Shown one piece after another: positions 25,181 through 40,861 of a stretch of 64,000 bases of DNA. The stretch is from the IMG/VR virus record IMGVR_UViG_3300008117_008405; one strand, 5' to 3'. The position numbers were made by a program, and so were the translations under genes. Below the pieces are notes generated by a model. That model saw only the letters and a list, made by a program, of their open reading frames with translations, searched no databases and had not been told where the DNA came from. Within the stretch, counting starts at the first letter, position 1; each line of letters starts with the position of its first letter. Source of the stretch: an uncultured virus (IMG/VR IMGVR_UViG_3300008117_008405) (taxonomy: Duplodnaviria; Heunggongvirae; Uroviricota; Caudoviricetes).

Positions 25181-25369
25181 TTATGCAAGTTGATTTGCGT
25201 CTGAATTTAACAGCAGCCCGAATGCGCTTTCTTGCTTATTCAACTTAAAATTATTAGAACAAAAACTTCCAATATTAAATGGAAAATGAAAAGATTTTTG
25301 AGATAAAAAGCTATAATTTATTTCATGATTCCAATGAAGTGAATACGCAATCGATTGTTTGAAAATCAT
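25181..25369 (-). CDS. micro-ORF family member (array A)
   Basis: MIFKQSIAYSLHW...; S/F-rich, 62 aa. Confidence 0.55.
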   Translation of the reverse strand: MIFKQSIAYSLHWNHEINYSFLSQKSFHFPFNIGSFCSNNFKLNKQESAFGLLLNSDANQLA

Positions 25370-25374
25370 TTTGT

Positions 25375-25554
25375 TTACCAAGGCCATCTATAAATGCTGC
25401 CTTGACTTCCACAAAAACTGCTGGACCAATAAACATGTACATGAAAAAGTGGAGAAAAATAGCTTTGCCTTGCAAAAATAGGGCTCATACCTCTTCCACT
25501 AAACCAGCTAGATCGATGTGGTTTTGTACATCTACAATTAATTTTATGTATCAT
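25375..25554 (-). CDS. micro-ORF family member (array A)
   Basis: MIHKINCRC...RWPW; ATGA overlap with upstream ORF. Confidence 0.55.
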   Translation of the reverse strand: MIHKINCRCTKPHRSSWFSGRGMSPIFARQSYFSPLFHVHVYWSSSFCGSQGSIYRWPW

Positions 25555-25742
25555 AGGTTTTTGCTCCAGCATCTTCCTCTAAAATTGTTTAGAGAAAAAA
25601 CAGTATTCATCTGTTTTGATTGTTGGAAATGTTTAGTCCAATGATATGAAAAATCCATATCTCCTACATGTGCAAAGCTGAACATAAAGCCTTGTTCAAA
25701 TAAGTAAATGGATGACCATGATGTGTTTCTGAAAATCATCAA
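25551..25742 (-). CDS. micro-ORF family member (array A)
   Basis: MMIFRNTSWS...RCWSKNL; overlapping stop/start at both ends. Confidence 0.6.
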   Translation of the reverse strand: MMIFRNTSWSSIYLFEQGFMFSFAHVGDMDFSYHWTKHFQQSKQMNTVFSLNNFRGRCWSKNL

Positions 25743-25921
25743 ATTCCATCACTCCAATTTCTGCTGTCGTAATTAGCTCTGCTAAAGGCGTTTGATCTTT
25801 CTCTGCTTTCTTGTGCTGGAATTTTCCAAGAAAAACTATAACTCATATCAAAAAAAGATGCAGCAACAAATCTATTGCCGAACAAATTGGTAGCAGACCA
25901 AGAAATGTATTTCAAAATCAT
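25739..25921 (-). CDS. micro-ORF family member (array A)
   Basis: MILKYISWS...SRNWSDGI. Confidence 0.6.
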   Translation of the reverse strand: MILKYISWSATNLFGNRFVAASFFDMSYSFSWKIPAQESRERSNAFSRANYDSRNWSDGI

Positions 25922-25930
25922 GATTGTATT

Positions 25931-26239
25931 TCAATTGGTGTCGTTAAACCACATGAATCCTATCACAGAAATTGCTTCAATCCAAGGCCAAAGCCCAAAA
26001 CCAACGGCTAAGATAGGCATTTTAAAGTGATTTAAAACTGGTGGCAAAATTCCACATATGAAGCAGACTACAGGAAATGTTAGAAAGATATAACACATGG
26101 CGATTGCCAAAGGGTTGTTTTGTGCTTGTGGGCTATCTGCTCCCATAGCAGCACCCATGATACAAGGGAAGATACTTATCAAAGCAAGAAAAACATTTAA
26201 AACACAGAAAATGTAAGCTAGAATACCCATCGAATTCAC
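25931..26239 (-). CDS. small membrane protein (about 3 TM segments)
   Basis: Three hydrophobic stretches, M..DSP loop. Confidence 0.65.
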   Translation of the reverse strand: MNSMGILAYIFCVLNVFLALISIFPCIMGAAMGADSPQAQNNPLAIAMCYIFLTFPVVCFICGILPPVLNHFKMPILAVGFGLWPWIEAISVIGFMWFNDTN

Positions 26240-26366
26240 CTATTAGCAAAGATATTAAAAATTTTTTCTGGCTGCATTAATGCCTATATTGACGATACAT
26301 CACCAAAATTTATATATAAATTATGTTTTCTATTAATAATATATAAAATTAACCAACGGAGGTATT

Positions 26367-26537
26367 ATGGAAATTCCAGCTAGTGTAACAAATTTATTGA
26401 ATAGTGAGATCGATCCCCTTTTAACCGAAGGTATGAGTGAGAAGGAAAAAGTTAATGTAGCAGAAGAAAAAGGGGATTTACTTGTTATTTGTTTGAAAAT
26501 TGCATTAGAACAAAAACTCAAGTCTTTACAATCATAA
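26367..26537 (+). CDS. 56-aa hypothetical protein
   Basis: MEIPASVTNLLNSEIDPLL...; SD GGAGG; ends before terminator; below ORF-track cutoff. Confidence 0.6.
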   Translation: MEIPASVTNLLNSEIDPLLTEGMSEKEKVNVAEEKGDLLVICLKIALEQKLKSLQS

Positions 26538-26540
26538 ACT

Positions 26541-26583
26541 AAAACCGCCCCTTACAAAAATCGTAAGGGGCGGTTTCGTTTTT
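26541..26583. terminator. bidirectional intrinsic terminator
   Basis: AAACCGCCCCTTAC...GTAAGGGGCGGTTT. Confidence 0.85.
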
Positions 26584-27901
26584 AGTTTTCTACTATGAAG
26601 TAGTGGCCATTGTTTTGGAGATCAGTAAGCTTCTCTGGTTCATTAGTGATTGTGTCTCCATCCATAGCTTCATTTACTTTTCTAATTTGAATCCCGTCAG
26701 TAGTTTCTATGTAACCACTTCTTTGTATTGATTTTCCACCTACAATCCAATAATCCATGTAGCCTTCTGTGCCCTCGTTTCTGTTTGGTGGTGTAAGTTT
26801 TATTTGATAATTATTATATGCGCTTCCCAATGCAGTAGTACCATGATATCCAGTTGAAACAAATGTCCAGCCATTGCCACCAGCTACAGTCTGGACTGGA
26901 GAAGAAATATCAATAGTGCTTTCGTTTCCTGCCTGTCCATCACCGTTTCTTCCCCAAACCCACAAGCTGCCGTCTGTCTTGAGTGCTGCTGTGAAGTCAT
27001 AACCGCATGATACCTGTGCCCAGTTGTTTCCTCCACAAATAGTCTGCACAGGGGATGAATAATCCTGTGTGTCTCCTGTTCCAAGTGCGCCATAACTATT
27101 TCCTCCCCACATCCAGAGGGTGCCATCCGTCTTGATTGCACCTGTAAAGTATCTTCCAACAGATACCTGCGCCCAATTATTTCCTCCACAAATGGTTTGC
27201 ACAGGAGATGAAACATTGACAGTATTTTCTGCCCCTAGCTGGCCCTCTGAATTACGCCCCCACAACCAGAGAGTCCCATCATTTTTTATAGCAGCGGTAT
27301 TTCTTCTGCTACAAGATACTTGTGCCCAGTCGTTTCCACCAGCAATAGTTTGAACTGGAGAGGACTTTTGATCAATAGAATCATCACCAAGTTCCCCATA
27401 AGTGTTTCTTCCAAACATCCACAATGTGCCATCAGTTTTTATAGCGCCAGTATGGTTTGCAGAACAAGAGACGGATGCCCAGTCATTTCCTCCAGCAACC
27501 GTTTGAACTGGAGATGATTTATCATCAGAAGTATCATCTCCTAAATTTCCATAATTGTTGTAACCCCACAGCCAGAGCGACCCATCATTCTTAATTCCCG
27601 CACATATGCCCCAGTACCAGTTTGAAGCATTTATAAACGCCCAGTCAGTATCAGTCCCTATTTGTGTAGGAGAAGAAAGGTCAACATTCTCTGTATTTTG
27701 TCCCAAGGCCCCATGGCTGTCAAACCCCCAAGACCAGACTGTTCCATCATTTTTTAAGGCAAGTGTCATGTCGTAGCCACCGGCTACCGCAACCCAATCA
27801 CTACCTCCAGCTATTGTTTGTATTGGAGATGACTTGTCATCTGTAGTATTGTCTCCAAGCTGTCCATAGTTATTTTGTCCCCATAACCATAATTGTGCCA
27901 T
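26582..27901 (-). CDS. RCC1/BLIP-II repeat beta-propeller with distinct ~75-aa C-terminal domain
   Basis: Seven ~51-aa repeats LW.WG.N.YGQLGD.....SSPVQT.AGG..W..VS.G...T.AIK.DG. Confidence 0.9.
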   Translation of the reverse strand: MAQLWLWGQNNYGQLGDNTTDDKSSPIQTIAGGSDWVAVAGGYDMTLALKNDGTVWSWGFDSHGALGQNTENVDLSSPTQIGTDTDWAFINASNWYWGICAGIKNDGSLWLWGYNNYGNLGDDTSDDKSSPVQTVAGGNDWASVSCSANHTGAIKTDGTLWMFGRNTYGELGDDSIDQKSSPVQTIAGGNDWAQVSCSRRNTAAIKNDGTLWLWGRNSEGQLGAENTVNVSSPVQTICGGNNWAQVSVGRYFTGAIKTDGTLWMWGGNSYGALGTGDTQDYSSPVQTICGGNNWAQVSCGYDFTAALKTDGSLWVWGRNGDGQAGNESTIDISSPVQTVAGGNGWTFVSTGYHGTTALGSAYNNYQIKLTPPNRNEGTEGYMDYWIVGGKSIQRSGYIETTDGIQIRKVNEAMDGDTITNEPEKLTDLQNNGHYFIVEN

Positions 27902-27960
27902 AATATAACTCCTAAATACAAATATTTATCTTACATAACTCATTAAATATATAGTTTATT

Positions 27961-28179
27961 ATGGAAAGTCTTGCTAGATTGGTTATTTTGATATTTTTAT
28001 CAATTTATTTCCTACTTCTAGGAATAGAATTGATTGCGTTGGTATTTGCAATTAAATATATTTTTCCTCAATACGGAGATTGGTGGTATTGTGCTTGGGT
28101 TCCTATTTTAATAGGAGCAAACTGGTGTCTGACTGTTTTGATATTAATTATCATGAGCAAAATTGGCTCCAAGAGCTAA
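27961..28179 (+). CDS. small membrane protein
   Basis: Two hydrophobic segments. Confidence 0.55.
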   Translation: MESLARLVILIFLSIYFLLLGIELIALVFAIKYIFPQYGDWWYCAWVPILIGANWCLTVLILIIMSKIGSKS

Positions 28180-28320
28180 TCTGGCATAAATTCTTCTGAG
28201 TCTTGACTCAAAAAAACCGAATTCTGAAGACCTGTATTTTTCTCTTTGAAATTGAACTGAGTAATTACGATCTGAACCGAAAACTGAATTCTTACTTGAC
28301 AAACTATAGATCAATATCAT
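28144..28320 (-). CDS. micro-ORF family member (array B)
   Basis: Hand-translated MILIYSLSSKNSVFGS...ANFAHDN*, 58 aa, ATGA overlap. Confidence 0.5.
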   Translation of the reverse strand: MILIYSLSSKNSVFGSDRNYSVQFQREKYRSSEFGFFESRLRRIYARLALGANFAHDN

Positions 28321-28487
28321 TTCGCAACCTTTTTATTTTTTAGAATCTCTAATTGTTTTTGTAATTTGGCAACTATTACATCATGTCTTTTCCAATATTG
28401 CTCTTTATTTCCATAATAATAACCCTCGTCCTTCATGGACTGTAAAGCGCCTAGTAAATGACTGATTTCAGACGATGTGAGTGTCAT
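28317..28487 (-). CDS. small helical passenger protein inside array B
   Basis: MTLTSSEISHLLGAL...YYGNKEQYWKRH; ordinary composition, coupled at both ends. Confidence 0.6.
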   Translation of the reverse strand: MTLTSSEISHLLGALQSMKDEGYYYGNKEQYWKRHDVIVAKLQKQLEILKNKKVAK

Positions 28488-28633
28488 CAATCCCCCCAAA
28501 TTTCGCATCTAGTCTTATCTAGTACGAATGCCCCTGAGTAGTATGTTATGCCAATAAAACATGATTTTGGATACATTCTGATGAAGCTACTGATGCCACG
28601 CCAATGGCTGAAAACTTTGATGCGATTTTCCAT
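28487..28633 (-). CDS. micro-ORF family member (array B)
   Basis: Hand-translated MENRIKVFSHW...RCEIWGD*, 48 aa. Confidence 0.5.
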   Translation of the reverse strand: MENRIKVFSHWRGISSFIRMYPKSCFIGITYYSGAFVLDKTRCEIWGD

Positions 28634-28812
28634 TACCACCTTCCAAAAAGTTTGCTGTAATTCCAACAGTCATGGTTATTACCAGCAAAGACTTCTGATC
28701 TTCCCATGCCATTTATCCGACAGCTTCCCCAAGCTGTATTCAACCAAGACATTTGTGACTGTGTTGCAAACACAGTTGATCTGCCTTTCAGAAATGGAAT
28801 ATTAAGAGTCAA
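28633..28812 (-). CDS. micro-ORF family member (array B)
   Basis: Hand-translated from TTG: MTLNIPF...SWLNTAWGSC...CWNYSKLFGRW*, 59 aa. Confidence 0.5.
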   Translation of the reverse strand: MTLNIPFLKGRSTVFATQSQMSWLNTAWGSCRINGMGRSEVFAGNNHDCWNYSKLFGRW

Positions 28813-28994
28813 CTCCAGAATCCAAAATTAGATTGAGTCGATCCTTTAAAAACTCTGCTTACTGTAGGTCTGGAAAATGGATTTAAAAATATTACGAAAC
28901 TGTTGCTATACGCTTCATCACCTGAAAAATTACCAGAAAAATGGCAATCATTCAAATCACTCAAAACATACTTGTGAAAATTGAATATGTGCAT
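28809..28994 (-). CDS. micro-ORF family member (array B)
   Basis: MHIFNF...SNFGFWS. Confidence 0.55.
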   Translation of the reverse strand: MHIFNFHKYVLSDLNDCHFSGNFSGDEAYSNSFVIFLNPFSRPTVSRVFKGSTQSNFGFWS

Positions 28995-29010
28995 AGAAAC
29001 CTGTTTTAAT

Positions 29011-29769
29011 TTAGCTTCGTGCTAGCTGTTTCTTAGCGTGATATGCAGCAATTACTTTTTTGTTATGTTCTGCTCTTTTTTTGTCAAACTCTTCAGGGGG
29101 TAGCCAAACCTCGTTGCCTAAAGCTGAGTATGTCCAGAATTTCCATTTGGTCAATGGATTGACATCTCCTCTGCTGAATTTTAAGTGTGGATTTTCCTTG
29201 CGTTGTTTTTGTTTTTCATGCCTAATTTGTTTGTATTTTTCAACAATTTCTTTTCCCTTCTTTTGCCTACGAATAGTTGAAAGTAATTTAATTCTTTCTC
29301 TACGCTTTTGCAGTTTTTCTACTGGTCCATACTTAACTTTATGGTTTTTGATTTCAACTACTACTAAATCTGGAATAGACGGATGCTTATCGCCTAAACA
29401 AACATTTGGTGGGGGAATTTTACTTTTCCTTTTTTCATAGGCAATTCTTTGTTGTTCTCGTCTTTTTAGTTTGTATGCTTCGAGTTCTGCAAGAGTGCCA
29501 AATTTAGGCGTTCCACTTGCATGCAAACAAATGAAGTACAAGCCAGTTTCTGGATTGTACTTGCCTTTAAAATTTCTTTGTTCAATTGGTAATTTTTCTT
29601 GATTTTTTTTATATTTTTCAATTCTTCTTTTATAACTTGTGATTCTGGCTGATTCGTACTGGTCGAACTTTTCTTTAGTCAACCAGACTTGGTATTTCTT
29701 TTTATTTTTACTTGATTTATAGGACCAAAAAATCTTGCCATCATCTCGCACGAATCCTTTGCGAAACAT
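29011..29769 (-). CDS. basic four-repeat putative nucleic-acid-binding protein
   Basis: Repeats F.KG...DGKIFWSY...VWL, FKGKYNPETGLYF, CLGDKHP, FSRGDVNP...FWTY...VWL separated by K/R helices; SD GGAGG. Confidence 0.6.
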   Translation of the reverse strand: MFRKGFVRDDGKIFWSYKSSKNKKKYQVWLTKEKFDQYESARITSYKRRIEKYKKNQEKLPIEQRNFKGKYNPETGLYFICLHASGTPKFGTLAELEAYKLKRREQQRIAYEKRKSKIPPPNVCLGDKHPSIPDLVVVEIKNHKVKYGPVEKLQKRRERIKLLSTIRRQKKGKEIVEKYKQIRHEKQKQRKENPHLKFSRGDVNPLTKWKFWTYSALGNEVWLPPEEFDKKRAEHNKKVIAAYHAKKQLARS

Positions 29770-29798
29770 ACCGCCTCCAGCTTTATGTGGACTACATA

Positions 29799-29942
29799 TT
29801 AATTGTTTTTGGAACCTTTGACAAATTTTTTCATGAGAAATTCTTTCTCATTTTTGTCTTTAGGAATCTTTACTACTTTTTTAGTGCAGGTTACAATTTC
29901 AACTTTTTTCTCAACCAGTAGCCATTCTTTAAATGTTTTCAT
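29799..29942 (-). CDS. 47-aa protein with capsid-targeting-like N-terminus
   Basis: Hand-translated MKTFKEWLLVEKKVEIV...; exact TATAAATA 4 nt upstream. Confidence 0.7.
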   Translation of the reverse strand: MKTFKEWLLVEKKVEIVTCTKKVVKIPKDKNEKEFLMKKFVKGSKNN

Positions 29943-29946
29943 ATGA

Positions 29947-29954
29947 TATTTATA
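29947..29954 (-). promoter_or_regulatory. T4-type late promoter box TATAAATA
   Basis: Exact consensus on the minus strand, 4 nt before ATG at 29942, no SD. Confidence 0.65.
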
Positions 29955-29962
29955 CATTTTAT

Positions 29963-30184
29963 TCAAAATTCACCGATATAGACAGATATTGGTTCATATG
30001 TTTCTTCTCCAATTTTAATTTGACCAATAGCTTTGCCACCAGTCTCAAATGCCATACTGGAGTAAACACTAAGTCTTTGGTTTGAATTTACTTTTATTAG
30101 TTGGCTTTTGTCGAGGTCAGATAGAATCTCAATTAGTTTTCCAACTGAGATGTATTCTTCTTCTGGATATTCTGATGTAAACAT
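29963..30184 (-). CDS. hypothetical protein
   Basis: SD GGGAGG; 73 aa. Confidence 0.6.
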   Translation of the reverse strand: MFTSEYPEEEYISVGKLIEILSDLDKSQLIKVNSNQRLSVYSSMAFETGGKAIGQIKIGEETYEPISVYIGEF

Positions 30185-30206
30185 GATTCCTCCATAAATA
30201 AATGAG

Positions 30207-30389
30207 TTAATTGTTTAAATCCTCGAACTTCCAACAATTACTGTTGTACCAATGTCCAAATCCTAACGCTTGGTGTATCCTAAACGCTGTGCTTTGAGGA
30301 CATAGGAATCCAAAAACTCTTCTCTTGAAAAAGAATGTTCCATTTGGGAATGCATTACCTTCAGGGATTGCTGCGTGTTTCAGGATCAT
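30207..30389 (-). CDS. micro-ORF family member (singleton)
   Basis: MILKHAA...NSNCWKF. Confidence 0.5.
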   Translation of the reverse strand: MILKHAAIPEGNAFPNGTFFFKRRVFGFLCPQSTAFRIHQALGFGHWYNSNCWKFEDLNN

Positions 30390-30467
30390 TTTTTCTTTCA
30401 CAATTTCTTCAATATATATTCATATAACTTTAACATACTTTGCAACGCCAGCATGGTTAAATAAAGT

Positions 30468-31139
30468 ATGCTTGATGCGATTATTATCTCTGACATTCAT
30501 CTAGGCTCCGATGTGTGCCAAGCAGAAGCCTTAGACAAATTCCTCAAGAAAATTGATAAACTACAGCCACAAAGACTCATAGTCAATGGCGATCTGTTCG
30601 ATTGCCTCAATTTCAACAAACTCCCAAAACACCATTGGCACATTCTCAAAGACCTCAGAAAATTATCTAAACACACAGAAGTTATCTGGATTAACGGTAA
30701 TCATGACGGACATTATGAATATGTTAGTAACCTCCTAGGACTTGAATTTTTCCAAGAATACACTTTTGAAAGTGATAATAAAAAAATAATTTGCCTGCAC
30801 GGAGATAGATTCGATAGCTTTATTCAAAAGTATCCCATGTTCACCAAATGTGCCGATGCAATTTATTGGCTTATGCAAAAATTAGATAAAAGCCATTCCC
30901 TAGCCGTCTATGCCAAAAAGAACAGCAAGACATTCCTCAGAAATAGTGAAAGAATAAAGACTGAAGCGGTGAAATATGCGAAAGAAAACGGAGCAGATAT
31001 TGTCCTGTGTGGTCATACTCATTTCCCAGAAACAACTTTAGTAAAAGGAATATGGTACGGCAATTCCGGTTGCTGGACTGACAAACAATGCTCCTACTTA
31101 ACCGTTTACCAAGGAGCAGTTACCCTGAATTATATATGA
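30468..31139 (+). CDS. calcineurin-like metallophosphoesterase, PlcP/LpxH-like phospholipase C
   Basis: ISDIHLG, NGDLFD, GNHD, HGDRFD, CGHTH, NSGCW. Confidence 0.8.
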   Translation: MLDAIIISDIHLGSDVCQAEALDKFLKKIDKLQPQRLIVNGDLFDCLNFNKLPKHHWHILKDLRKLSKHTEVIWINGNHDGHYEYVSNLLGLEFFQEYTFESDNKKIICLHGDRFDSFIQKYPMFTKCADAIYWLMQKLDKSHSLAVYAKKNSKTFLRNSERIKTEAVKYAKENGADIVLCGHTHFPETTLVKGIWYGNSGCWTDKQCSYLTVYQGAVTLNYI

Positions 31140-32588: not shown

Positions 32589-33341
32589 ATGAATTTTAAA
32601 TTTTGGTTAGTTGAAGAAGAGTCTTCCAATAGGGAATATTGGGGTCCAATTAGTTATGCTACTAAAGAGGGTGATTATCTTAAAATTACAGCTGACATGC
32701 TTGATAAGCCACTTTATATTCCTTACAGCGATGAAGTTGCGTATGTCAACCAATATCCTAAAAATAAAACTTTAAATCCACCTTGGAATAAGTATTTCCG
32801 TTATTCTGTTGCCCCAGATGGAAAATATGTTGTAAATTATGTTGAGAACAGGGCTGTTGACTGCCTTTGCTATTCACCAAAATACAATGCTGTCTATTTG
32901 ATTGATAGGAAAGCACCTCCTTTCGGCATAGCCATTCCCGGCGGTTTTTTCGATACGCATGACGGTATTAATGTGAACAATCCATCTGATCCACAGACTA
33001 TTGGTGCGGTTACAGCTGCTAGAGAATTAGAGGAAGAAACTGGTGCAAAGGTAAGTGCTAGTGATCTTTCGTATATTGGTCGCTTCAGGACAGATGCGTC
33101 TGATACAAGAGAAAAGAATTTTTATATCTGGGCTTACTTTTACATCGTTCCAGATGATATGATTCATGATTTCAAGTTTGGTGATGATGCTGGTCAGGCA
33201 CCCGGAAGCCCATCTTTACAGCGAGAAGGATTAAATGGTTGGTATGAGGTTGATAATATTCCAAATTTAGTTTTCCCACATCATTATGATATTATAAAAA
33301 CAGCAATGAATAATTTAGTCAATCAAAGGGAAAGTAAATGA
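32589..33341 (+). CDS. Nudix hydrolase
   Basis: AIPGGF...AARELEEETG Nudix box, GDDA, LVFPHH; N-terminal MNFKFWLVEEE. Confidence 0.85.
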   Translation: MNFKFWLVEEESSNREYWGPISYATKEGDYLKITADMLDKPLYIPYSDEVAYVNQYPKNKTLNPPWNKYFRYSVAPDGKYVVNYVENRAVDCLCYSPKYNAVYLIDRKAPPFGIAIPGGFFDTHDGINVNNPSDPQTIGAVTAARELEEETGAKVSASDLSYIGRFRTDASDTREKNFYIWAYFYIVPDDMIHDFKFGDDAGQAPGSPSLQREGLNGWYEVDNIPNLVFPHHYDIIKTAMNNLVNQRESK

Positions 33342-33371: not shown

Positions 33372-33488
33372 TCAAATCCCAATTGTATAAAAGGCTGCAA
33401 AGAAATCGTTGCTGTACTTCCAATACAGGAAAGCCAAAGTTCCAGCCACAATGATTGCTGCAATAATCAATTTATTTTTTGTTTTCAT
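33372..33488 (-). CDS. 38-aa single-TM passenger protein
   Basis: Hand-translated MKTKNKLIIAAIIVAGTLAFLYW...; ATGA overlap. Confidence 0.5.
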   Translation of the reverse strand: MKTKNKLIIAAIIVAGTLAFLYWKYSNDFFAAFYTIGI

Positions 33489-33658
33489 ATACTTCCCCCA
33501 AAATTATAACTGCAAGTAAAGTTGGAATTAAAAACCTGAGTGCGCCAACCTCTAGCTGTCCATTCTATATAGAGTGTCCTATTTTGCATCCAGTTATAAC
33601 TCCTGTAATGACTAAAACGCCAAACTTCTACCATGCTGGGATTTGGAGATCGGAACAT
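33485..33658 (-). CDS. micro-ORF family member (array C)
   Basis: Hand-translated MFRSPNPS...CSYNFGGSI*, 57 aa. Confidence 0.5.
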   Translation of the reverse strand: MFRSPNPSMVEVWRFSHYRSYNWMQNRTLYIEWTARGWRTQVFNSNFTCSYNFGGSI

Positions 33659-33810
33659 CAAAATTTTCTCTCAACAAAATTAAATGAATAAGCTAATCCA
33701 ACTGTAAAAGTCATACTGTATGAAATGCCTCTAAACATATCAGAATTGCTTCTAAAATGCTTCCAAATTAAAATATGACTAGGGGCAGTTTGTTTGTGGA
33801 AGGTTCTCAT
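33658..33810 (-). CDS. micro-ORF family member (array C)
   Basis: Hand-translated MRTFHKQ...FVERKF*, 50 aa. Confidence 0.45.
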   Translation of the reverse strand: MRTFHKQTAPSHILIWKHFRSNSDMFRGISYSMTFTVGLAYSFNFVERKF

Positions 33811-33974
33811 ATGTTGTGTTCCCAGCATCTGCTTTTATAGTCTGGTGATACAAACAACCACGAAATACTTGTTTTATAAACAAGAGCTTCACCCCAATGT
33901 CTGCTGTAGCCTAGTGTATAAAATTTTGAATACTGACGATCTGTATTCCATGAATTGCTGGATGGGTGGGTCAT
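33807..33974 (-). CDS. micro-ORF family member (array C)
   Basis: MTHPSSNSW...SRCWEHNI. Confidence 0.55.
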   Translation of the reverse strand: MTHPSSNSWNTDRQYSKFYTLGYSRHWGEALVYKTSISWLFVSPDYKSRCWEHNI

Positions 33975-34153
33975 CCTCTGAAACCCCAACAAATAGAATT
34001 GAAATATAAATCCCTTGCTCTGTTATGCCAATGCCTAGACCTCCCGCATCCATTCAAATAGGCTAAAGAGCTTTGATATATAAATCTAGAAAATGGGCTT
34101 GATGTACCGAACAGAGTTATTTTCATGCCTTCGACTGTGTGGACTGAAATCAT
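33971..34153 (-). CDS. micro-ORF family member (array C)
   Basis: MISVH...SICWGFRG. Confidence 0.55.
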   Translation of the reverse strand: MISVHTVEGMKITLFGTSSPFSRFIYQSSLAYLNGCGRSRHWHNRARDLYFNSICWGFRG

Positions 34154-34154
34154 C

Positions 34155-34496
34155 TCAATCCCCCTTATGCCCACCCACCAAAATTACAACCCAATACGAC
34201 TTTTTCTCCGATTCAATTTCCCTATTATATGCTTTAGCTCTTGTTACGAAATGCTCAAGATGTGGTTCTAAACTTTCTGTTAGTCTGAAACTGAAAGGCT
34301 TGCCAGACTTGAGTATAATTTCAAATAAACCAGCATAAAATCCAAATTGGAAATCTGTATCAGTAGATTTGTTGCCCCATTTGAATATATCTGCAAATTC
34401 CCAAAAGGGTGATCCAGTATCAAAAAATTCTCCACTAGGAACTGGTTCAAAACTGTCATCATTAGTGGGCAAGAGATCGTCTAAGGGTATCATCAT
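34155..34496 (-). CDS. acidic passenger protein inside array C
   Basis: 113 aa, coupled to micro-ORFs on both sides. Confidence 0.6.
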   Translation of the reverse strand: MMIPLDDLLPTNDDSFEPVPSGEFFDTGSPFWEFADIFKWGNKSTDTDFQFGFYAGLFEIILKSGKPFSFRLTESLEPHLEHFVTRAKAYNREIESEKKSYWVVILVGGHKGD

Positions 34497-34654
34497 TCAA
34501 TCTCCGAAACATAATACGGCAAAGTGTCCCACGCTGACATGGTTCTCAACCCCACAAAATTCCAACTGTTATGAATTCCCCAGCTTAAAAAGGAAGTTTT
34601 ATAATCCCGATCCCAACCCCGACTTCTAGCACAATAGCTTATTTTGAAAATCAT
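34493..34654 (-). CDS. micro-ORF family member (array C)
   Basis: Hand-translated MIFKISYCARSRGW...SWGIHNSW...*, 53 aa. Confidence 0.55.
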   Translation of the reverse strand: MIFKISYCARSRGWDRDYKTSFLSWGIHNSWNFVGLRTMSAWDTLPYYVSEIE

Positions 34655-35070: not shown

Positions 35071-35117
35071 GACTTCTCCTTTAAATAAACTACTACTAAT
35101 TATATAGTATTGAAAAT

Positions 35118-35303
35118 TTATTCCCCAGTCCAATTGTGTTTTCTTTCCAATTCTTCAATTCTATTCGCTAAAGAATGAAAGGTGTCAACAACAATATCTT
35201 GCATTCTGCCATGATGTTCTTTATGAATTTTAAACATTTGCCAAGTGAACCAAGCGTTCAGTATGAGTGAGGCGATAAAAAGTCCTATAATTATAGGGAG
35301 CAT
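35118..35303 (-). CDS. single-TM small protein
   Basis: MLPIIIGLFIASLILNAWF; coupled to array D. Confidence 0.55.
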   Translation of the reverse strand: MLPIIIGLFIASLILNAWFTWQMFKIHKEHHGRMQDIVVDTFHSLANRIEELERKHNWTGE

Positions 35304-35506
35304 CACCGCCTCACATTGAATCTGTTGAAAGTAAAACAATGTTCCCTACCGCCAAAACCCAATCCATGAGCAATACTGATCCAGAAGCTTTTGCGAACAT
35401 ATTGCCCATATGATGAAAGTCCAAACAAACCTGTCATGTTATAACGAAATAACCCAAATGGGCTACAGTCCATATAGAATACTGCTTGTGGTTTAGGAAA
35501 TTTCAT
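35303..35506 (-). CDS. micro-ORF family member (array D)
   Basis: MKFPK...; F/G/S-rich, ATGA overlap. Confidence 0.5.
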   Translation of the reverse strand: MKFPKPQAVFYMDCSPFGLFRYNMTGLFGLSSYGQYVRKSFWISIAHGLGFGGREHCFTFNRFNVRR

Positions 35507-35566: not shown

Positions 35567-35584
35567 CCGGAGGAAAAGAAATCG

Positions 35585-36157
35585 TCAGCTCCAATCATAA
35601 TCATCATCATCATCTTCTTCTTCATAAATGGGGCCACAAAAGAATTCATTATCGAAATGCCGACAATCCTGAAATGGGAGTCCCCATACTATTCCACCGG
35701 GCCAGCCACCAAAGTTTTCATTCCATGTTATCTTCCAATAATGACCTCTAAAATAAGCAAAATCATGCCAGTTTTTATTTGTAGCCCAAGATTCATGAAA
35801 AATCGTAGAAGAGGTTGAAAACAACCTAATTCTTTCTCCCCAAGGATTTTCATGCCCACTTTCAACAAGCATCCTCAATGTTGGATTTTCATGCGGAGAA
35901 TTTTTTATTTTATAAATATCAAATATTACAGACCAATCCTCGCAAACATAAAAAAGTTCAATTTCATCATATCCACCTATATGTGGACTGAATCCAGCAG
36001 GTATATCATATAAGCTTTTTCTTGGATAAGAAAGTTCTATGTCCAACCTTAGATGTTTATCTAAAGGTTGAACTGGATATTTTTCAAAATTATTTAAACG
36101 AATATTTATCCATTCATCATAGCTAATTTCAGAAATTCCATTGCATTTAAGTATCAT
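35585..36157 (-). CDS. 190-aa passenger protein flanked by direct repeats
   Basis: Acidic C-terminal tail; starts inside repeat copy 2 and stops beside copy 1. Confidence 0.65.
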   Translation of the reverse strand: MILKCNGISEISYDEWINIRLNNFEKYPVQPLDKHLRLDIELSYPRKSLYDIPAGFSPHIGGYDEIELFYVCEDWSVIFDIYKIKNSPHENPTLRMLVESGHENPWGERIRLFSTSSTIFHESWATNKNWHDFAYFRGHYWKITWNENFGGWPGGIVWGLPFQDCRHFDNEFFCGPIYEEEDDDDDYDWS

Positions 36158-36217
36158 ATCCTATTCCCCCAGCATCTACTATTTTGGCTCATAGTCCAGT
36201 ATCTGCCTTGAGAAAAA
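36154..36217. repeat. 64-bp direct repeat, copy 2
   Basis: Encodes FSQGRYWTMSQNSRCWGNRI* on the minus strand. Confidence 0.95.
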
Positions 36218-36351
36218 GTATAGGAAAAAAAGTCATAATGTTTGAATGTACTGAGAGAAAGCTCGACAAGAGTAGTGCCCCATGAAGTAGATGAGTTATG
36301 CCCTCTGCTGAACAGGCGCATGGAGGATAGGCTGTGGATGCGAAATATCAT
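36154..36351 (-). CDS. micro-ORF family member (array D)
   Basis: MIFRIHS...SRCWGNRI. Confidence 0.65.
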   Translation of the reverse strand: MIFRIHSLSSMRLFSRGHNSSTSWGTTLVELSLSTFKHYDFFSYTFSQGRYWTMSQNSRCWGNRI

Positions 36352-36518
36352 CTCCTTATCTCAATCCCTCTAGACAAAAAGAACACCTCATAGTCCACAT
36401 GATAGTAGATATTTCTAGTGAAGCAACTGCAATAAAATTTTCTTTGGAAAAAAGACCTAGATCTGCTATCCGACCAGCAATGTGCTAAATCTGTTGTTTT
36501 ATACGATGGAATGAACAT
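36348..36518 (-). CDS. micro-ORF family member (array D)
   Basis: MFIPSY...CWSDSRSRS...; TAATG overlap. Confidence 0.55.
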   Translation of the reverse strand: MFIPSYKTTDLAHCWSDSRSRSFFQRKFYCSCFTRNIYYHVDYEVFFLSRGIEIRR

Positions 36519-36709
36519 TAAATTTTGCCTTTCCAGCATTCACTACGGTTGCTTACAGCACTCTGAATAAATCCAAATGCTTGACAGTAATCCCATTCCC
36601 TACGACCAATCCAACTTGTCGGAAAATTAAATGGGAATATTTTGGAGCCAATAAATGATTCGTCCCAGAAGGGTTCGCAGTAGTTCCAGCTATGGATGCG
36701 CTGGATCAT
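36518..36709 (-). CDS. micro-ORF family member (array D)
   Basis: MIQRIHSW...SECWKGKI. Confidence 0.65.
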   Translation of the reverse strand: MIQRIHSWNYCEPFWDESFIGSKIFPFNFPTSWIGRREWDYCQAFGFIQSAVSNRSECWKGKI

Positions 36710-36864
36710 ATATCCCTATTCCAATTAAAAGAAAAAGTTGAACAGCGGTGAAAGCACTTGGATTGCTGCTTTCTAGCTACACACTCTGACCCGACTGACA
36801 TTTTTGAGGTTCATCTGAATAGCTCCTTGAATAGCTTTTTGCCTTAAAAACAAGCGAAATTCAA
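36706..36864 (-). pseudogene. decayed micro-ORF slot
   Basis: Unit-length gap ending ...FSFNWNRDI*, with SYSRSYS in another frame; no continuous ORF. Confidence 0.45.
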
Positions 36865-37040
36865 AAAATCCAATAGTTTTGTGAATAGCCTTGTGAATAC
36901 CCATAACTCCATATTGCCTTGACACCAAATGCCCTGCGCTTTGACAATGTACTATATTTTGTGCCAATAAAGCAATAGCTTGTATCGCTGGCATCATTCC
37001 AGCACCAACATTCTTTGTAGGAGTTAATCAGATGGATCAT
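36861..37040 (-). CDS. micro-ORF family member (array D)
   Basis: MIHLINSYKECWCW...WSYGYSQGYSQNYWIF. Confidence 0.6.
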   Translation of the reverse strand: MIHLINSYKECWCWNDASDTSYCFIGTKYSTLSKRRAFGVKAIWSYGYSQGYSQNYWIF

Positions 37041-37243
37041 ATCCCGCTCCCCCAGCAACTCGACCAAAATCCATAGCGCAATTTCGATCTGCATTGCCTT
37101 TCAAATATCACACTCCAAAAACCCATGCTTCTGCCTACTGTATTCCTCAGAGTGCAATATTGGAAGCGTGGAAAGCAATGGCTAATGCTGTTATCGCCAC
37201 TCCAGCATCCATTGTTTGAAATAGTGTTAATTCGGATAATCAA
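37037..37243 (-). CDS. micro-ORF family member (array D)
   Basis: MIIRIN...CWS...FWS...FWSSCWGSGI. Confidence 0.65.
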   Translation of the reverse strand: MIIRINTISNNGCWSGDNSISHCFPRFQYCTLRNTVGRSMGFWSVIFERQCRSKLRYGFWSSCWGSGI

Positions 37244-37380
37244 AGGCTCCTCACTCGCTCTCTGCTGAACATATAACTATAATATCCACCGTTTAAACGA
37301 CTGCTTACAACATCATAAAAAATGAATTGATAATTGCCTTCTGACCAACATTTGCTGCTTCTCATACGGCAGAACATCAT
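37240..37380 (-). CDS. micro-ORF family member (array D)
   Basis: MMFCRMRSSKCWS...; start uncertain. Confidence 0.5.
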   Translation of the reverse strand: MMFCRMRSSKCWSEGNYQFIFYDVVSSRLNGGYYSYMFSRERVRSL

Positions 37381-37391
37381 TGGAAAGTCTC

Positions 37392-37598
37392 CTAAATTTG
37401 TGTCCTTAAAGCAAATGGTCTTCCGCATGTCATCTGTCCATCGTGAAATGCATTAGACATAAATGAATTTCCTTCAAAACAAAGTGCTGACCCATATTTT
37501 CCATGAAAAGAAACTGAAGTTCCAAAAGAATCAAACAGATAAGAAAATCTTCGTAGATGTAATGTATTCATGCCATTACAGTTTCTAGTGAATATCAT
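37392..37598 (-). CDS. micro-ORF family member (array D)
   Basis: MIFTRNC... Confidence 0.55.
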   Translation of the reverse strand: MIFTRNCNGMNTLHLRRFSYLFDSFGTSVSFHGKYGSALCFEGNSFMSNAFHDGQMTCGRPFALRTQI

Positions 37599-37599
37599 G

Positions 37600-37788
37600 C
37601 TAATCTCTCCACCCCCAGCACTTACTGTAGTACGACCATCTGCTTGTTAATTGGGAGGTCTTACTCAACAATATGGAATACCGATCCCTTTTGCCCACAA
37701 AATTATCTCCCCATATTACGCCTCTGGTGCCATGATGCGACCAGATTTGCCAATGAAATGATCTGGAACTGCCGAACTTATAGAACAT
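37600..37788 (-). CDS. micro-ORF family member (array D)
   Basis: MFYKFGS...SKCWGWRD. Confidence 0.6.
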   Translation of the reverse strand: MFYKFGSSRSFHWQIWSHHGTRGVIWGDNFVGKRDRYSILLSKTSQLTSRWSYYSKCWGWRD

Positions 37789-37982
37789 TAGTCTATCCCC
37801 CACAAAAAAGAATCATTCTTTTGGGAGCAAGTTATATTTTTAGACCAACAATGGGAAAATGACAATGCTGCTCTGGCTGTCATAGCTCTAGTGTCACATA
37901 GACACCAATTATTTCTCCAATTGTGACTGCCAGAATATATTTGGCTGAAGATGGCGCAGTCATGCCCGTTGATGAAAAGCAT
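37788..37982 (-). CDS. micro-ORF family member (array D)
   Basis: MLFING...CWS...FLWGID. Confidence 0.6.
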   Translation of the reverse strand: MLFINGHDCAIFSQIYSGSHNWRNNWCLCDTRAMTARAALSFSHCWSKNITCSQKNDSFLWGID

Positions 37983-38087
37983 CTTGCCTTCTTTTTTTAT
38001 TTTTTATGATAAATTTTCATTATATAATCAAAGTTCGAAAATACAATAAAATTTTGCCATAGTAGTTGGTATGTCGTAAGGAATAAT

Positions 38088-38732
38088 ATGAATGAAATAA
38101 ACCAAAAAATATATGAAAATTTAGAGTTGTGGCCTGAAGATACAGATGGCTGGGGAGGAAATGATTCTATTTTTGAAGAAATGATATCTATGTCTTTGCC
38201 TTCAGTTGTAGTAGAAATAGGTTCTTGGAAAGGCCAATCAACTATTAACATGGGCAAAATTTTAAAAAAACTAGGATTGAAACATACCAAGATATATGCC
38301 ATTGACACATGGTTAGGAGCGACAGAATTTTGGACAACACACAAGGATACTCCAGAAAGAAATCTCCATCTTAAAAATGGTTATCCTCAAATATATTATC
38401 AGTTCTTGAGTAATGTTGTTCACAATAATTTACAAGATACGATTATTCCAATAACAAATACATCAATTACAGGCTTAAAAATATTGAAACACCATGCGAT
38501 AAAGCCAGAGCTTGTTTACATAGATGCATCTCATGAAGAGGAAGATGTTTACGCAGACTTGAAGTACTCATTTGATATGGTAGAAAAAGGAATTGTTTTT
38601 GGTCATGATTATGATTGGTGTGCAGGTGTAAAAAGTGCCGTAGACAGATTTGCAAATGAGAACAGACTAAGGCTTGAATCTAAAGCAGCTTTTTGGTTTA
38701 TAAAAAAGTTGAAATATCCACAAAAAAAATAA
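38088..38732 (+). CDS. class I SAM-dependent methyltransferase (Methyltransf_24-like)
   Basis: GW, VEIGSWKGQS, IDTWLG, YIDASH, GHDY. Confidence 0.85.
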   Translation: MNEINQKIYENLELWPEDTDGWGGNDSIFEEMISMSLPSVVVEIGSWKGQSTINMGKILKKLGLKHTKIYAIDTWLGATEFWTTHKDTPERNLHLKNGYPQIYYQFLSNVVHNNLQDTIIPITNTSITGLKILKHHAIKPELVYIDASHEEEDVYADLKYSFDMVEKGIVFGHDYDWCAGVKSAVDRFANENRLRLESKAAFWFIKKLKYPQKK

Positions 38733-39243
38733 TTTTTTTATGATCTAAAAATTTGTAGACTTATCGTGGTTATTTCTGGAGAGCATTTTTATGTTTCCTT
38801 TTCTCTCTATACTGTCTAATTTTGTCTTGATTATTTGCTTCCCATATTTTTCTTTGTTCACGAAGTTTTTCTTTATTCTTAATTCGCCATGCTAACCTTG
38901 CTTCTTCTCTTCTGATTCTACTTTTATATGGCATTACTTCTCCCTTCTTTTAATTTTTCCACAACTAATGTCACAACACAAGAAATAAAGCTGTGACATA
39001 ACAAATGTCACAGCTACACCTGTCCAAAATCCATCCCAATAACTAGACATTACGGTCACTCACAGGATTGCATGCAATACTATTAAATATATTTTTCATT
39101 TCTGTTGTCATAGAATCATACCCTAAATTAGATAGATGCCGGTTTGAATGCAGGTGTTTTATAATGTCTTCCATAATTTTTTCTTCTAATGACTTGTCCA
39201 TGTTCTACTCCAAATGCGAAAAAAACTATGAATCCAATTCGAA

Positions 39244-39435
39244 TTAAAGGTCGGAAGGCTTGCCAATTCCAGAAAAGTTGCTCATTCTTTTTGCAACTTC
39301 CGTAGCAATTGCATATTGGGGATGAGATTGTTCTTTTGTTTGGCAGGTGCCACAAATATAGTCTGAATTAAATTTGCTCATACAGCAGTCAGACATAGAT
39401 TGACGACAACGGTCACATTTCGTTGGATACGGCAT
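39244..39435 (-). CDS. small Zn-finger protein
   Basis: CDRC...MSKFN...IC..C...E..HP.Y...F.GIG.P; SD AAGGAG. Confidence 0.65.
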   Translation of the reverse strand: MPYPTKCDRCRQSMSDCCMSKFNSDYICGTCQTKEQSHPQYAIATEVAKRMSNFSGIGKPSDL

Positions 39436-39487
39436 AGAAACTCCTTTTAAAAAACACTTAGGCATAATACTATAAAAAATTACTGAA

Positions 39488-39673
39488 TCAAACCCAATCG
39501 CTGGAATAAAATCCAAAATTTTTAGATTGTTGAAGTCGTAGATTAGTATTTCTGGCTGAAAAACTTTTCCAAAGATATGAATACGGCATAAAATGATGGA
39601 AGAAACAAGCTATATTGGAACTTGCTTTTTGATGCAATATCCAGCAGCATGATTCTGCATGTAACAACCTCAT
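39488..39673 (-). CDS. micro-ORF family member (array E)
   Basis: MRLLHAESCCW...YSSDWV. Confidence 0.55.
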   Translation of the reverse strand: MRLLHAESCCWILHQKASSNIACFFHHFMPYSYLWKSFSARNTNLRLQQSKNFGFYSSDWV

Positions 39674-39900
39674 ACCCAATCGCTCCAACTGTGCTGTTCT
39701 TCAAATGAAAATTCTTTCCATACTGTAGATTCGCAAGCACCAAACACTTCACTCCAAGCTTGCCCTGTATTTCTACTAACTCTATTGAATCTACTTCCAA
39801 AAGCCAAACAACAATATTCATTAGGTCTGAATGTCACACCGAATCTTTGATTTCGGGCGAATACAGAATAAGTGTGTCTGCATGTGTAATTGAAAATCAC
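39670..39900 (-). CDS. micro-ORF family member (array E)
   Basis: GTG start overlapping the upstream TGA: MIFNYTC...HSWSDWV, 76 aa. Confidence 0.55.
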   Translation of the reverse strand: MIFNYTCRHTYSVFARNQRFGVTFRPNEYCCLAFGSRFNRVSRNTGQAWSEVFGACESTVWKEFSFEEQHSWSDWV

Positions 39901-40082
39901 GGGCTTCTCCACAACATATTGAAGCAATGACTGTCATAAATAAACGGATGACTGAATAATTGGCTTTGAGTTCTGCCGTCAAAGCTAAGTGCTCTATAAA
40001 GTTCACTATTATTTATGTCTTTGAATGAGCAAGCGTTACCTGCTGAAAAAACATCACAATTAAAATTTAAAACCTTTAACAT
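39897..40082 (-). CDS. micro-ORF family member (array E)
   Basis: MLKVLN...SHCFNMLWRSP. Confidence 0.5.
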   Translation of the reverse strand: MLKVLNFNCDVFSAGNACSFKDINNSELYRALSFDGRTQSQLFSHPFIYDSHCFNMLWRSP

Positions 40083-40389
40083 GACTTTCGTTGAAAACCT
40101 TTGATTCAGTTATGCCTGAAGGCCACCATGATCTCGGTTCGGTTGTCCAGTTCAAACTTCTTTTGACTCTTTTATCACCATACTTTGACCAATAGTAAAG
40201 TATAGTGGATCGATCAGCGTTTGGAAACCTTTCTCTTTGTCTCCATGGTGATGAATACAGAGAAGTAATAAAAACATAACTTTTGTGACTTAGATCAACA
40301 GTTCTTTTTTGTTCATTCCAACTTGTATTTAATACTGGAGGCTTGTTAGTTGTAAAACCATATACTGAAAATGGAATTTCTGACATCAC
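40060..40389 (-). CDS. passenger protein inside array E
   Basis: 109 aa ORF. Confidence 0.45.
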   Translation of the reverse strand: MMSEIPFSVYGFTTNKPPVLNTSWNEQKRTVDLSHKSYVFITSLYSSPWRQRERFPNADRSTILYYWSKYGDKRVKRSLNWTTEPRSWWPSGITESKVFNESHVKGFKF

Positions 40390-40478
40390 TCTCTCACTTT
40401 CTCTGCAACTATATATATCATACCCACTAGTACAGATACAGCGACGAGAAAAGAAAGAGTATTAATCATGGTGATCTC

Positions 40479-40682
40479 CTAAATGTTGCCAGACCAATGT
40501 CCCCAGCTGCTATTTAAATTGAACTCATCTCCCCAAGTAAAATGTCTGCTGAAAAAGTATTTGTTAGAAAAACACTCTGATTCTAATATAAAATCTCTTT
40601 CTGTCCAACAATCAGACCGATTCCAATTATTTTGGAATTGGCAAACATCACTTCGTTGGCCAACTTTAAACAACATTTTCAA
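40479..40682 (-). CDS. micro-ORF family member (array E)
   Basis: MLFKV...SDCW...SSWGHWSGNI. Confidence 0.6.
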   Translation of the reverse strand: MKMLFKVGQRSDVCQFQNNWNRSDCWTERDFILESECFSNKYFFSRHFTWGDEFNLNSSWGHWSGNI

Positions 40683-40861
40683 TTTCCAAAAGCAAAAGAA
40701 CGAGAATTAAACTGTGAGAATAGGACGCTGCCAGTTCTTTCAAAAAAAGCTATTGAAAAACTACTATGGAATTTAAAACCATATGAGTATTTATATCTTG
40801 CTAACCGTGTGCCAGAATATCTTCTTTCAAATCTGAATGATTTGCTTTCTGGGAAGAACAT
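40679..40861 (-). CDS. micro-ORF family member (array E)
   Basis: MFFPESKSF...SRSFAFGN. Confidence 0.55.
   Translation of the reverse strand: MFFPESKSFRFERRYSGTRLARYKYSYGFKFHSSFSIAFFERTGSVLFSQFNSRSFAFGN

Follow-up and report, generated by a model that had tools for sequence, protein, structure and literature searches.

A paralogous family of small, translationally coupled phage genes associated with an Sm-fold protein module

The 64,000-nucleotide stretch of DNA analysed here (the window) derives from a huge T4-like freshwater (lake) phage, the host of which is probably a member of the Planctomycetota. About 30 short open reading frames on its minus strand are real small genes under purifying selection, a conclusion we regard as nearly certain, and they form one ancient paralogous family. 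A conserved set of three genes accompanies the family and encodes an Sm-fold protein, a short DUF6745 protein and a histidine-motif protein of the phrog_27831 type. It is probable that the peptides are functionally tied to this Sm module; their co-location may, alternatively, be due only to their lying in a common accessory region.

The five arrays and the singleton of the original prediction are all present on the minus strand at the positions it gave, and 30 members were delimited (46–76 aa, with one of 108 aa), with ordinary genes interspersed among the arrays:

25181..25921, minus strand: array A, members of 59–62 aa (A1 25739–25921, A2 25551–25739, A3 25375–25554, A4 25181–25369)
28144..28994, minus strand: array B (B1 28809–28994, B2 28633–28812, B3 28487–28633, B5 28144–28320)
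28317–28490, minus strand: ordinary 57-aa gene, chained between B3 and B5
30207..30389, minus strand: singleton S1, 60 aa (orthologues at 87–88% identity, dN/dS 0.09)
33485..34654, minus strand: array C (C1 34493–34654, C2 33971–34153, C3 33807–33974, C4 33658–33810, C5 33485–33661)
34155..34496, minus strand: anchor gene within array C, ordinary, 113 aa, no known family
35303..35506, minus strand: member D12, 67 aa
35503..35583, minus strand: remnant second copy of the D9 3′-end, 81 nt, 89% identical to 36154–36234
35585..36157, minus strand: 190-aa gene without known family, an insertion that separates D9 from the duplicated end of D9
36154..36709, minus strand: members D7 (36518–36709), D8 (36348–36518) and D9 (36154–36351)
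36706..36814, minus strand: D6b, a broken 31st member; the window is without 59 nt between 36791 and 36792
36861..37982, minus strand: members D1 37788–37982, D2 37600–37788, D3 37392–37598, D4 37240–37380, D5 37037–37243, D6 36861–37040
39488..40861, minus strand: array E (E1 40679–40861, E2 40479–40682, E4 40060–40386, E5 39897–40082, E6 39670–39900, E7 39488–39673)

The long member is E4 (108 aa), and a 27-aa hydrophobic ORF sits between E2 and E4. A1 and A2 can be recognised as duplicates of each other, and A2 is one of the most widely conserved members; D7, D8 and D9 each have 10–11 diverged orthologue matches. The 113-aa anchor gene is surrounded by such arrays in 18 of the 20 metagenome loci scanned.

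The head-to-tail coupling that had been described is borne out, as 20 of the 30 members are joined to the gene that follows by a −4 or −1 stop/start overlap (one further overlap, with a downstream ORF of only 6 codons, was excluded). The shuffling control proposed alongside it gave a clear answer: ORFs of 44–80 aa in the arrays form 18 links, compared with a mean of 0.31 and a maximum of 3 in 1000 dinucleotide shuffles. When the minus strand from 25 to 41 kb was taken without selection, 20 links were counted (0.65 in shuffles, maximum 4, 200 shuffles); the plus strand of the same region has 2. Synonymous codon usage of the members is close to that of the long genes, and the other two same-strand frames contain 73 and 157 stops.

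The extreme divergence of the members had been read as hypervariability under diversifying pressure, a reading that the orthologues contradict. For DNA-defined orthologues of 22 of the 30 members in related phages, dN/dS is 0.16 (bootstrap 0.12–0.19), with pN<pS in all 22; the remaining eight members are without a DNA-level orthologue under 99%. Only 2 in-frame stops occur in 3315 orthologous codons, where 81 would be expected, and none of 14 gapped orthologue pairs is frameshifted. Member values (0.16–0.19) resemble those of the neighbouring ordinary genes (0.12–0.27). Across the clade, 222 peptides fall into 71 groups, a count that leaves out L038, L046 and L047 (anchor gene, no array) and L045 (a duplicate of L044); L039, L041 and L059 were left unscanned, being the same as the window, L001 and L038. 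In each of the 30 testable groups pN<pS, the other 41 having no usable pair. Within groups, indels are few, and conservation is 95% for Trp and 89% for Phe, compared with around 60% for Val, Ala and Met; Cys (80%) and Ser (77%) are conserved less than Trp, Phe, Pro and Tyr.

Variation lies between paralogues, each of which has its own conserved sequence, and in the presence or absence of cassettes. Comparison of array content among related phages, as had been suggested, reveals that strains differ in which whole genes have been acquired, lost or reshuffled at coupled junctions, with strain breakpoints coinciding with gene junctions. D3–D6, for example, are missing as one block in other strains (joint 36861–37599). 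Only near-identical strains carry a copy of the 190-aa gene, which is absent in L043, where D9 adjoins D12; the duplicated D9 end restores a coupled junction ahead of D12 after insertion of this gene. Single members are scattered elsewhere in the nearest record (G001; 145 kb, 33% complete), which stood in for the whole genome, and in G002. A composition classifier trained on the members of the window makes 0–3 false calls per shuffled 16 kb.

Paralogy is supported by 28 of 435 member pairs with z>3, and by A1 and A2, which are 35% identical over their full length (z=10). The middles had been called unalignable: paralogues do differ there, but the A1/A2 pair aligns throughout. The odd composition that had been noted holds, relative to 37 long genes, for Ser (13.7 vs 6.6%), Phe (10.5 vs 5.1%), Trp (4.5 vs 1.4%), Arg (7.7 vs 3.7%) and Cys (3.2 vs 1.4%), but Tyr (5.1 vs 4.1%) and Gly (6.3 vs 6.0%) are barely raised, and the frequencies of Cys, Arg and Tyr do not exceed random-sequence expectation. 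The conserved termini exist but are less universal than had been proposed: M[ILF][FHQL] begins 14 of the 30 members, and S-x-C-W lies within the final 25 residues of 8. A Trp at position −5 is found in 10 of the 30 (19 of 38 in the family) and does not feature among the residues that are common in 41 ordinary coupled genes; its codon doubles as the Shine-Dalgarno sequence of the following gene. Small residues alternate along the members (lag 2, z=4.1; lag 4, z=3.7), 27 of the 30 carry net positive charge, and no hydrophobic 19-mer in any of them exceeds 0.95. At least two Cys are present in 17 members and none in 5.

That the members match no named family is upheld by Pfam and PHROGs searches with all 30, in which nothing came near cut-off (best E=0.035 and E=0.062). 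A word-based homologue search with A2 gave zero candidates, and ESM Atlas matches to D7 scored at most 0.80 and were uninformative. A profile search of 1.84 billion representatives returned 9 matches: 8 are members of the family itself or their orthologues, and the ninth is a 740-aa repeat protein that is unrelated. A degenerate DNA pattern for the junctions, searched in viral contigs, found 7 loci, comprising a near-identical contig and six chance matches without arrays. The AlphaFold2 prediction for D7 (pLDDT 42) is not interpretable, for which a shallow alignment may be the cause. A sigma-70 scan was at chance level (67 vs 67.3), a late-promoter octamer scan showed no excess (7 vs 5.4), the sequencing runs listed for this sequence include no RNA dataset, and we found no paper describing this peptide class.

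In G001, the gene for the Sm-fold protein sits beside genes for a DUF6745 protein (Pfam PF20530, 91 bits) and a phrog_27831 protein (E=5e-7). This operon lies outside the window, and the link to it does not feature in the original prediction. The Sm protein is predicted by AlphaFold2 (pLDDT 88) to consist of a helix and a bent five-stranded barrel. Foldseek matches it to Sm/LSm folds with probability 1.0 and top TM-scores, by target, of about 0.7–0.8. The predicted fold is like that of Sm/LSm/Hfq proteins, including peptide-binding LSm proteins (LSM14–4E-T, PDB 6f9w, is among the matches); the likeness is one of predicted fold only, with identity of 15–21%, and in the alignment the protein lacks the Arg-Gly of the canonical second Sm motif. 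The DUF6745 proteins of the module are about 200 aa long and lack an internal repeat tract, because only 33–37 residues precede the conserved core (10 of 10 aligned); no paper containing the term DUF6745 was found. The phrog_27831-type protein has invariant His residues, and sequence comparison reveals no relative of solved structure (best E=0.012).

Among 25 Sm loci, which include two that are this phage's own gene and several near-duplicates, a phrog_27831-type gene is present at 25, DUF6745 at 22 and at least one such peptide at 24, with a peptide within 300 nt behind the Sm gene at 12. Among close relatives, orthologues of E1, E2, E4–E7, D1, D2, D4 and D6–D9 lie at most 8.6 kb behind an Sm gene on the same strand in L094, and in L088 the E4 orthologue begins 105 nt downstream of such a gene; in these two loci the Sm copy that precedes the arrays has no His-motif neighbour, and the His-motif gene adjoins a second Sm copy. 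The single Sm gene of this phage itself lies on the strand opposite to the arrays, at a distance of 28.5 kb from the closest of them, and just one member is behind the Sm operon. No Sm match was found in G002, G003 and G005 (6–44% complete), nor any match to the Sm protein or the anchor gene among 50,697 deposited phages.

Other phages carry Sm-linked arrays of (X-Ser)n or Trp-Ser repeat peptides, and these are the closest likeness to the members: both consist of coupled, basic peptides of around 61 aa with an MI- start, Ser at −8, Trp at −5, alternating small and large residues and linkage to an orthologous Sm-fold gene. Against terminal profiles built from 115 Sm-linked peptides of other phages, the 30 members outscore every one of 1000 shuffles (N-terminal z about 6.7, C-terminal z about 5.8), which also holds without position 2, and the median lengths of the two sets are 61 and 60.5. 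Unlike the repeat arrays, the members have no Ser dipeptide repeat or hexamer periodicity (Ser lag-2 ratio 0.84 vs 1.75; DNA lag-6 z −0.1, where their own clade has 2.2 and the sister clade 12.5), and they are therefore a related, non-repetitive form rather than repeat members. They also differ in Phe (10.5 vs 3.6%) and Trp (4.5 vs 11.2%), in their dispersal over five arrays and in the remoteness of the Sm gene.

We tentatively propose that the peptides may be interchangeable, target-specific subunits of a system that is centred on Sm and serves host takeover or anti-defence. Members would have arisen as Trp/Arg-Ser hexamer stutters, a form that the sister clade still shows, and later have become fixed sequences free of repeats. 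The resulting peptides, which are basic, aromatic and not of the membrane type and have no confident fold on their own, would serve as interchangeable specificity subunits, docking to the common Sm-centred module through their shared ends or through an alternating small/large strand, whilst each distinct core would recognise a different host protein or RNA in the service of takeover or counter-defence. Translational coupling would lead to co-expression in similar amounts. A more speculative version is a germline-like repertoire of binder peptides, born by hexamer stutter between a fixed leader and tail, matured by point mutation into sequence-specific binders, fixed by selection and traded between strains as cassettes; a single Sm/DUF6745/phrog_27831 machine would send every one of them to its own target in host defence or regulation. 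Should the peptides be target-specific, a single phage clade would contain over 70 natural microprotein binders already proven by selection, along with an undescribed adaptor system, and could richly supply factors for anti-defence or host takeover. Whatever the function, the series from hexamer repeats (sister clade) through partly repetitive genes to the complex, purified genes of the window is a tractable natural case of new genes born from simple repeats, and three uncharacterised phage families are tied to one candidate pathway.

Several other readings share part of this evidence. The peptides could be independent accessory inhibitors for host takeover or anti-defence, derived from one repeat-born scaffold and each acting alone, with Sm as a historical neighbour. 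Purifying selection on each paralogue, cassette-like presence and absence, the distant, opposite-strand Sm gene and the scattered singletons of G001 and G002 fit this, but the frequency of peptides at Sm loci, often directly behind Sm, does not, and fixed length with shared ends across more than 70 groups suggests a common partner; we consider it possible, if doubtful. Alternatively, collective sticker-spacer peptides (Trp/Phe/Arg stickers; Ser/Gly/Asn spacers) might form, with an Sm ring, an RNA–protein condensate or mixed cross-beta assembly that protects or concentrates phage RNA, individual identity being secondary. Composition, charge, the preferential conservation of Trp and Phe, the period-2 alternation and the lack of a confident monomer fold are in keeping with such an assembly. 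However, dN/dS as low as in ordinary neighbours and the scarcity of indels within groups argue for sequence-specific roles, and the Sm protein is without the second-motif Arg-Gly; we consider this reading rather unlikely.

Modified-peptide precursors had also been raised; a RiPP-type library of leader, core and follower, matured by an enzyme not recognised as such, for example DUF6745 or the His-motif protein, looks quite unlikely. As in prochlorosin or cyanobactin libraries, around 30 precursor-sized genes have short common ends flanking distinct Ser/Cys-rich middles, many with two or more Cys, and the invariant His residues of the phrog_27831-type protein could suit an enzyme. Unlike those libraries, none of 222 peptides has a double-glycine (Nif11/NHLP-type) leader pattern; YcaO was found in 0 of 7 records and radical SAM in 0 of 4 (records 6–88% complete), LanC, LanB and LanM searches of incomplete records, run without a positive control, were blank, and purifying selection covers the whole peptide, with Cys and Ser less conserved than the aromatic residues and some members Cys-free. 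The T-even internal protein (IPI) locus is likewise an array of small basic genes that come and go as cassettes between strains, which the members resemble, also in having a common N-terminus, but T-even internal proteins carry an N-terminal capsid targeting sequence. A leader pattern of this kind occurs in none of the 30 members and none of the 222 clade peptides, compared with at least 4 other genes of the window; late-promoter octamers are not in excess, and the aromatic/Ser composition and far larger number of members are unlike the IPI locus. A capsid-internal or decoration role in the virion is very improbable. Least credible is an artefact of chance ORFs, off-frame shadows, recoded stops (TGA=Trp) or diversity-generating retroelements. 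Reading TGA as Trp does lift crude ORF coverage, some database entries are called through TGA, and Cys, Arg and Tyr frequencies resemble random sequence, but the chaining shuffles and selection in the member frame largely refute it. Alternative codes and hidden off-frame genes were rejected given in-frame selection and off-frame read-through: the D7 stop is TAA in the window and TGA in L040, and extensions obtained by reading through TGA are the next member read off frame. Reverse transcriptase was found in 0 of 5 incomplete records, strain differences are balanced transitions without adenine bias, and the only long repeat among members, the D9 end, has changes not confined to A.

The counterpart of D6b is an intact 55-aa member in L001, G001, L044 and L094, and sequencing runs X5 and X20 contain the bases missing from the window.

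The arrays are real and lie far from chance expectation. Thirty members, all small Ser/Phe/Trp-rich peptide genes, were delimited in the window, and in 20 of them the end overlaps the following gene (−4 or −1). Links between ORFs of 44–80 aa number 18 in the arrays, against a mean of 0.31 (maximum 3) in 1000 shuffles, and 20 in an unselected 16-kb region, against 0.65 (maximum 4; 200 shuffles); the head-to-tail chaining noted in the original prediction is thus above chance. The odd composition also described there stands for Ser, Phe and Trp, which exceed both long genes and random expectation, whilst Cys and Arg exceed long genes only; the members are poor in Asp, Glu, Lys, Leu, Val and Ala, and their synonymous codon usage is like that of long genes. 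The other two same-strand frames contain 73 and 157 stops. As anticipated, none of the 30 members reached the cut-off in Pfam or PHROG searches. Paralogy among the members is faint, yet real: A1 and A2 share 35% identity over their full length, and z exceeds 3 in 28 of 435 member–member pairs (mean z 1.0), such that the proposed paralogous family holds. Also chained into the arrays are small hydrophobic ORFs, each with one likely membrane segment (35118–35303, 33372–33488 and 40386–40470, minus strand). The sole tRNA-Ser(GCT) gene of the window (56749–56821, plus strand) has an anticodon that reads AGY serine codons; these account for 47% of the serine codons of members and 36% of those of long genes.

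Profile searches recovered orthologues of individual members at approximately 60–94% identity, and 23 metagenome loci were fetched by the anchor gene, an ordinary gene embedded in array C. Such peptides occur in 18 of the 20 metagenome loci scanned; the anchor gene lacks an array in the remaining two (L046 and L047) and in one viral locus (L038). Together, the window and the 20 loci yield 222 peptides in 71 groups (median 61 aa). For these protein-defined groups dN/dS is 0.19, with pN below pS in all 30 groups that could be tested; the corresponding range for the anchor gene is 0.19–0.27. DNA-defined orthologues, which avoid selection on protein identity and cover 22 of the 30 members, gave a dN/dS of 0.16 (0.12–0.19), with pN below pS in 22 of 22, compared with 0.12 for neighbouring genes (8 of 9). 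They contain two in-frame stops in 3315 codons, where 81 were expected, and no frameshift among 14 gapped pairs. On these grounds the family is not under diversifying selection at the gene-wide level, contradicting the diversifying pressure first supposed; nor do stops arise freely, as had been considered a sign against real genes. The highest values are those of D6 (0.59) and D4 (0.45), and Trp and Phe residues are 95% and 89% conserved.

Strain comparisons, which the original prediction had proposed, and contigs from public runs reveal that gene order and content vary, with alignment breakpoints at gene junctions. Other strains carry extra members between D1 and D2, between D7 and D8, and ahead of C2 and C3, or have D12 directly adjoined by D9 or D8; run contigs contain a joint omitting D3–D6 (X5, X19) and one omitting D9 plus a 190-aa gene (X19). 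In the window, this inserted gene is flanked by a second copy of the D9 end, 81 nt long, and a 31st member is broken, lacking 59 nt that are present in L001, G001 and runs X5 and X20. In the related locus L094, D6 and D9 match the window at 100% identity, E2 and E7 at only 56%, which indicates mosaic exchange among strains, presumably by recombination at short G-rich junctions. Array-internal block duplications occur in L052 and L053 (group n5 three times, D7 twice, interleaved with other members). Apparent stop-loss fusions include database protein P0029 (119 aa), a D6 orthologue read into the following member, and L051:596–1045 (150 aa), a D12-like peptide joined to an ordinary gene.

The record closest to the window, G001 (145 kb, completeness estimate 33%), has a single Sm-like gene approximately 5.5 kb past the window end. 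The relevant features are:
G001:C1:30126–31525 (L017:10126–11525), minus, operon of an Sm-fold gene, an overlapping DUF6745 gene without repeat tract, a phrog_27831 His-motif gene and one member-like Ser/Cys-rich peptide
L017:6963–7187, further member-like singleton
L017:4511–4687, further member-like singleton
L016:16091–16315, further member-like singleton
L016:17234–17455, further member-like singleton
The predicted model of the G001 protein (pLDDT 88) matches Sm/LSm structures, and 176 homologues were found. Among 25 viral Sm loci (two being the window phage's own gene, several near-duplicates), a phrog_27831-type gene is present in 25, DUF6745 in 22, at least one peptide in 24 and eight or more in 10; a peptide lies within 300 nt behind the Sm gene in 12. 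Most telling for the link to Sm are L094, in which 13 window members have orthologues on the same strand as an Sm gene and no more than 8.6 kb behind it, and L088, where an E4 orthologue starts 105 nt behind Sm.

N- and C-terminal profiles built from 115 Sm-linked peptides score the window members above all 1000 shuffles, and the lengths of the two sets agree. Serine alternates in the Sm-linked repeat peptides (lag-2 ratio 1.75), whereas the window members show no such alternation (0.84), a residual alternation involving small/large residues only. Hexamer periodicity declines across three sets, with z=12.5 in the sister clade, 2.2 in other members of the window's own clade and −0.1 in the window, and Trp-Ser runs persist in some members of relatives; we therefore read the members as born from stutters and then matured, a direction that we infer from an unrooted comparison. 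The tail Trp codon overlaps the Shine-Dalgarno of the following gene; W at −5 (19 of 38) and S at −8 (21 of 38) are family-specific relative to 41 ordinary coupled genes, and the Ser at −8 is encoded by AGY and TCN codons alike. Judged by sequence, the window arrays appear to be a matured form, free of repeats, of an unpublished class of phage microproteins that is linked to an Sm-fold module. Among described systems, none fits the arrays: in literature coverage without most subscription journals, we found no description of tandem Ser/Trp-rich small-protein arrays in phages, no link between a phage Sm-like protein and serine-repeat microproteins, and no paper naming DUF6745, and the main text of PMC7162821 lacks the terms 'Sm-like', 'small proteins' and 'planctomyc'.

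A common partner is suggested by the fixed length and the shared ends, and individual targets by the strict conservation of each paralogue; turnover of whole cassettes is what accessory genes under pressure from the host typically show. Because of these features we tentatively favour the members as putative interchangeable specificity peptides of the Sm/DUF6745/phrog_27831 module, with which they would be used as exchangeable subunits. Counting against the link to Sm, the Sm gene of the window phage lies 28.5 kb from E1 on the opposite strand, and none was found in three incomplete records. That the members are putative independent inhibitors, each acting alone, is a somewhat less probable reading.

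The members are basic, with a mean net charge of +3.5 and a positive value in 27 of 30; they are approximately 20% aromatic, lack membrane segments, and yielded no confident fold for the single member modelled. Alongside these properties, putative collective builders of condensates or cross-beta assemblies are a lesser possibility, set against the paralogue-specific conservation, and putative precursors of modified peptides are unlikely. It is more doubtful still that they are putative virion proteins, and an artefact is very improbable. From the specificity peptides onwards, the readings are listed in falling order of probability.

The window is AT-rich (GC approximately 36%, 64 kb) and was translated with code 11. 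The related record G002 (181 kb, 38% complete) has several window members in common, and its T4-type major capsid gene is 77% identical to the counterpart in the 595-kb uncultured phage LR756511.1. Sequencing runs that contain the window sequence bear one of three labels (lake water, freshwater or fungus metagenome) and amount to 20 rows in 16 studies. The host is probably a planctomycete, since another contig of this kind was binned in a Phycisphaerales MAG and a close relative carries a gene of a type that we take to be associated with planctomycetes, although a third contig was binned in an Acidimicrobiaceae MAG, which keeps this assignment provisional:
L094:7500–8576, plus, DUF1559 prepilin-type gene (156 bits), an insertion that separates the Sm gene from the peptide arrays, absent from the corresponding place in L088

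Further genes of the window are:
3052–3258, minus, CsrA-family RNA-binding regulator (55 bits)
4597–5847, ClpX-like ATPase
13459–14547, IMPDH/GMP-reductase
19491–19829, plus, small Cys-rich protein, signal-peptide-like by sequence
26582–27901, minus, first of two RCC1-repeat proteins, 153-nt repeat units
52757–53206, plus, small Cys-rich protein, signal-peptide-like by sequence
53328–54515, plus, RCC1-repeat protein, 153-nt repeat units, assigned by similarity to 26582–27901
58409–61417, MoxR-type AAA gene adjoining a vWA gene
The two Cys-rich products have no Pfam match and presumably resemble planctomycete secreted proteins. Additionally, an N-terminus that we take, from the T4 pattern, to be like a capsid targeting sequence is common to unrelated genes at 20920–21663 (plus), 29799–29942 (minus), 32589–33341 (plus) and 51141–51344 (minus), suggesting a candidate set of capsid-internal proteins; one of these genes is a NUDIX hydrolase.
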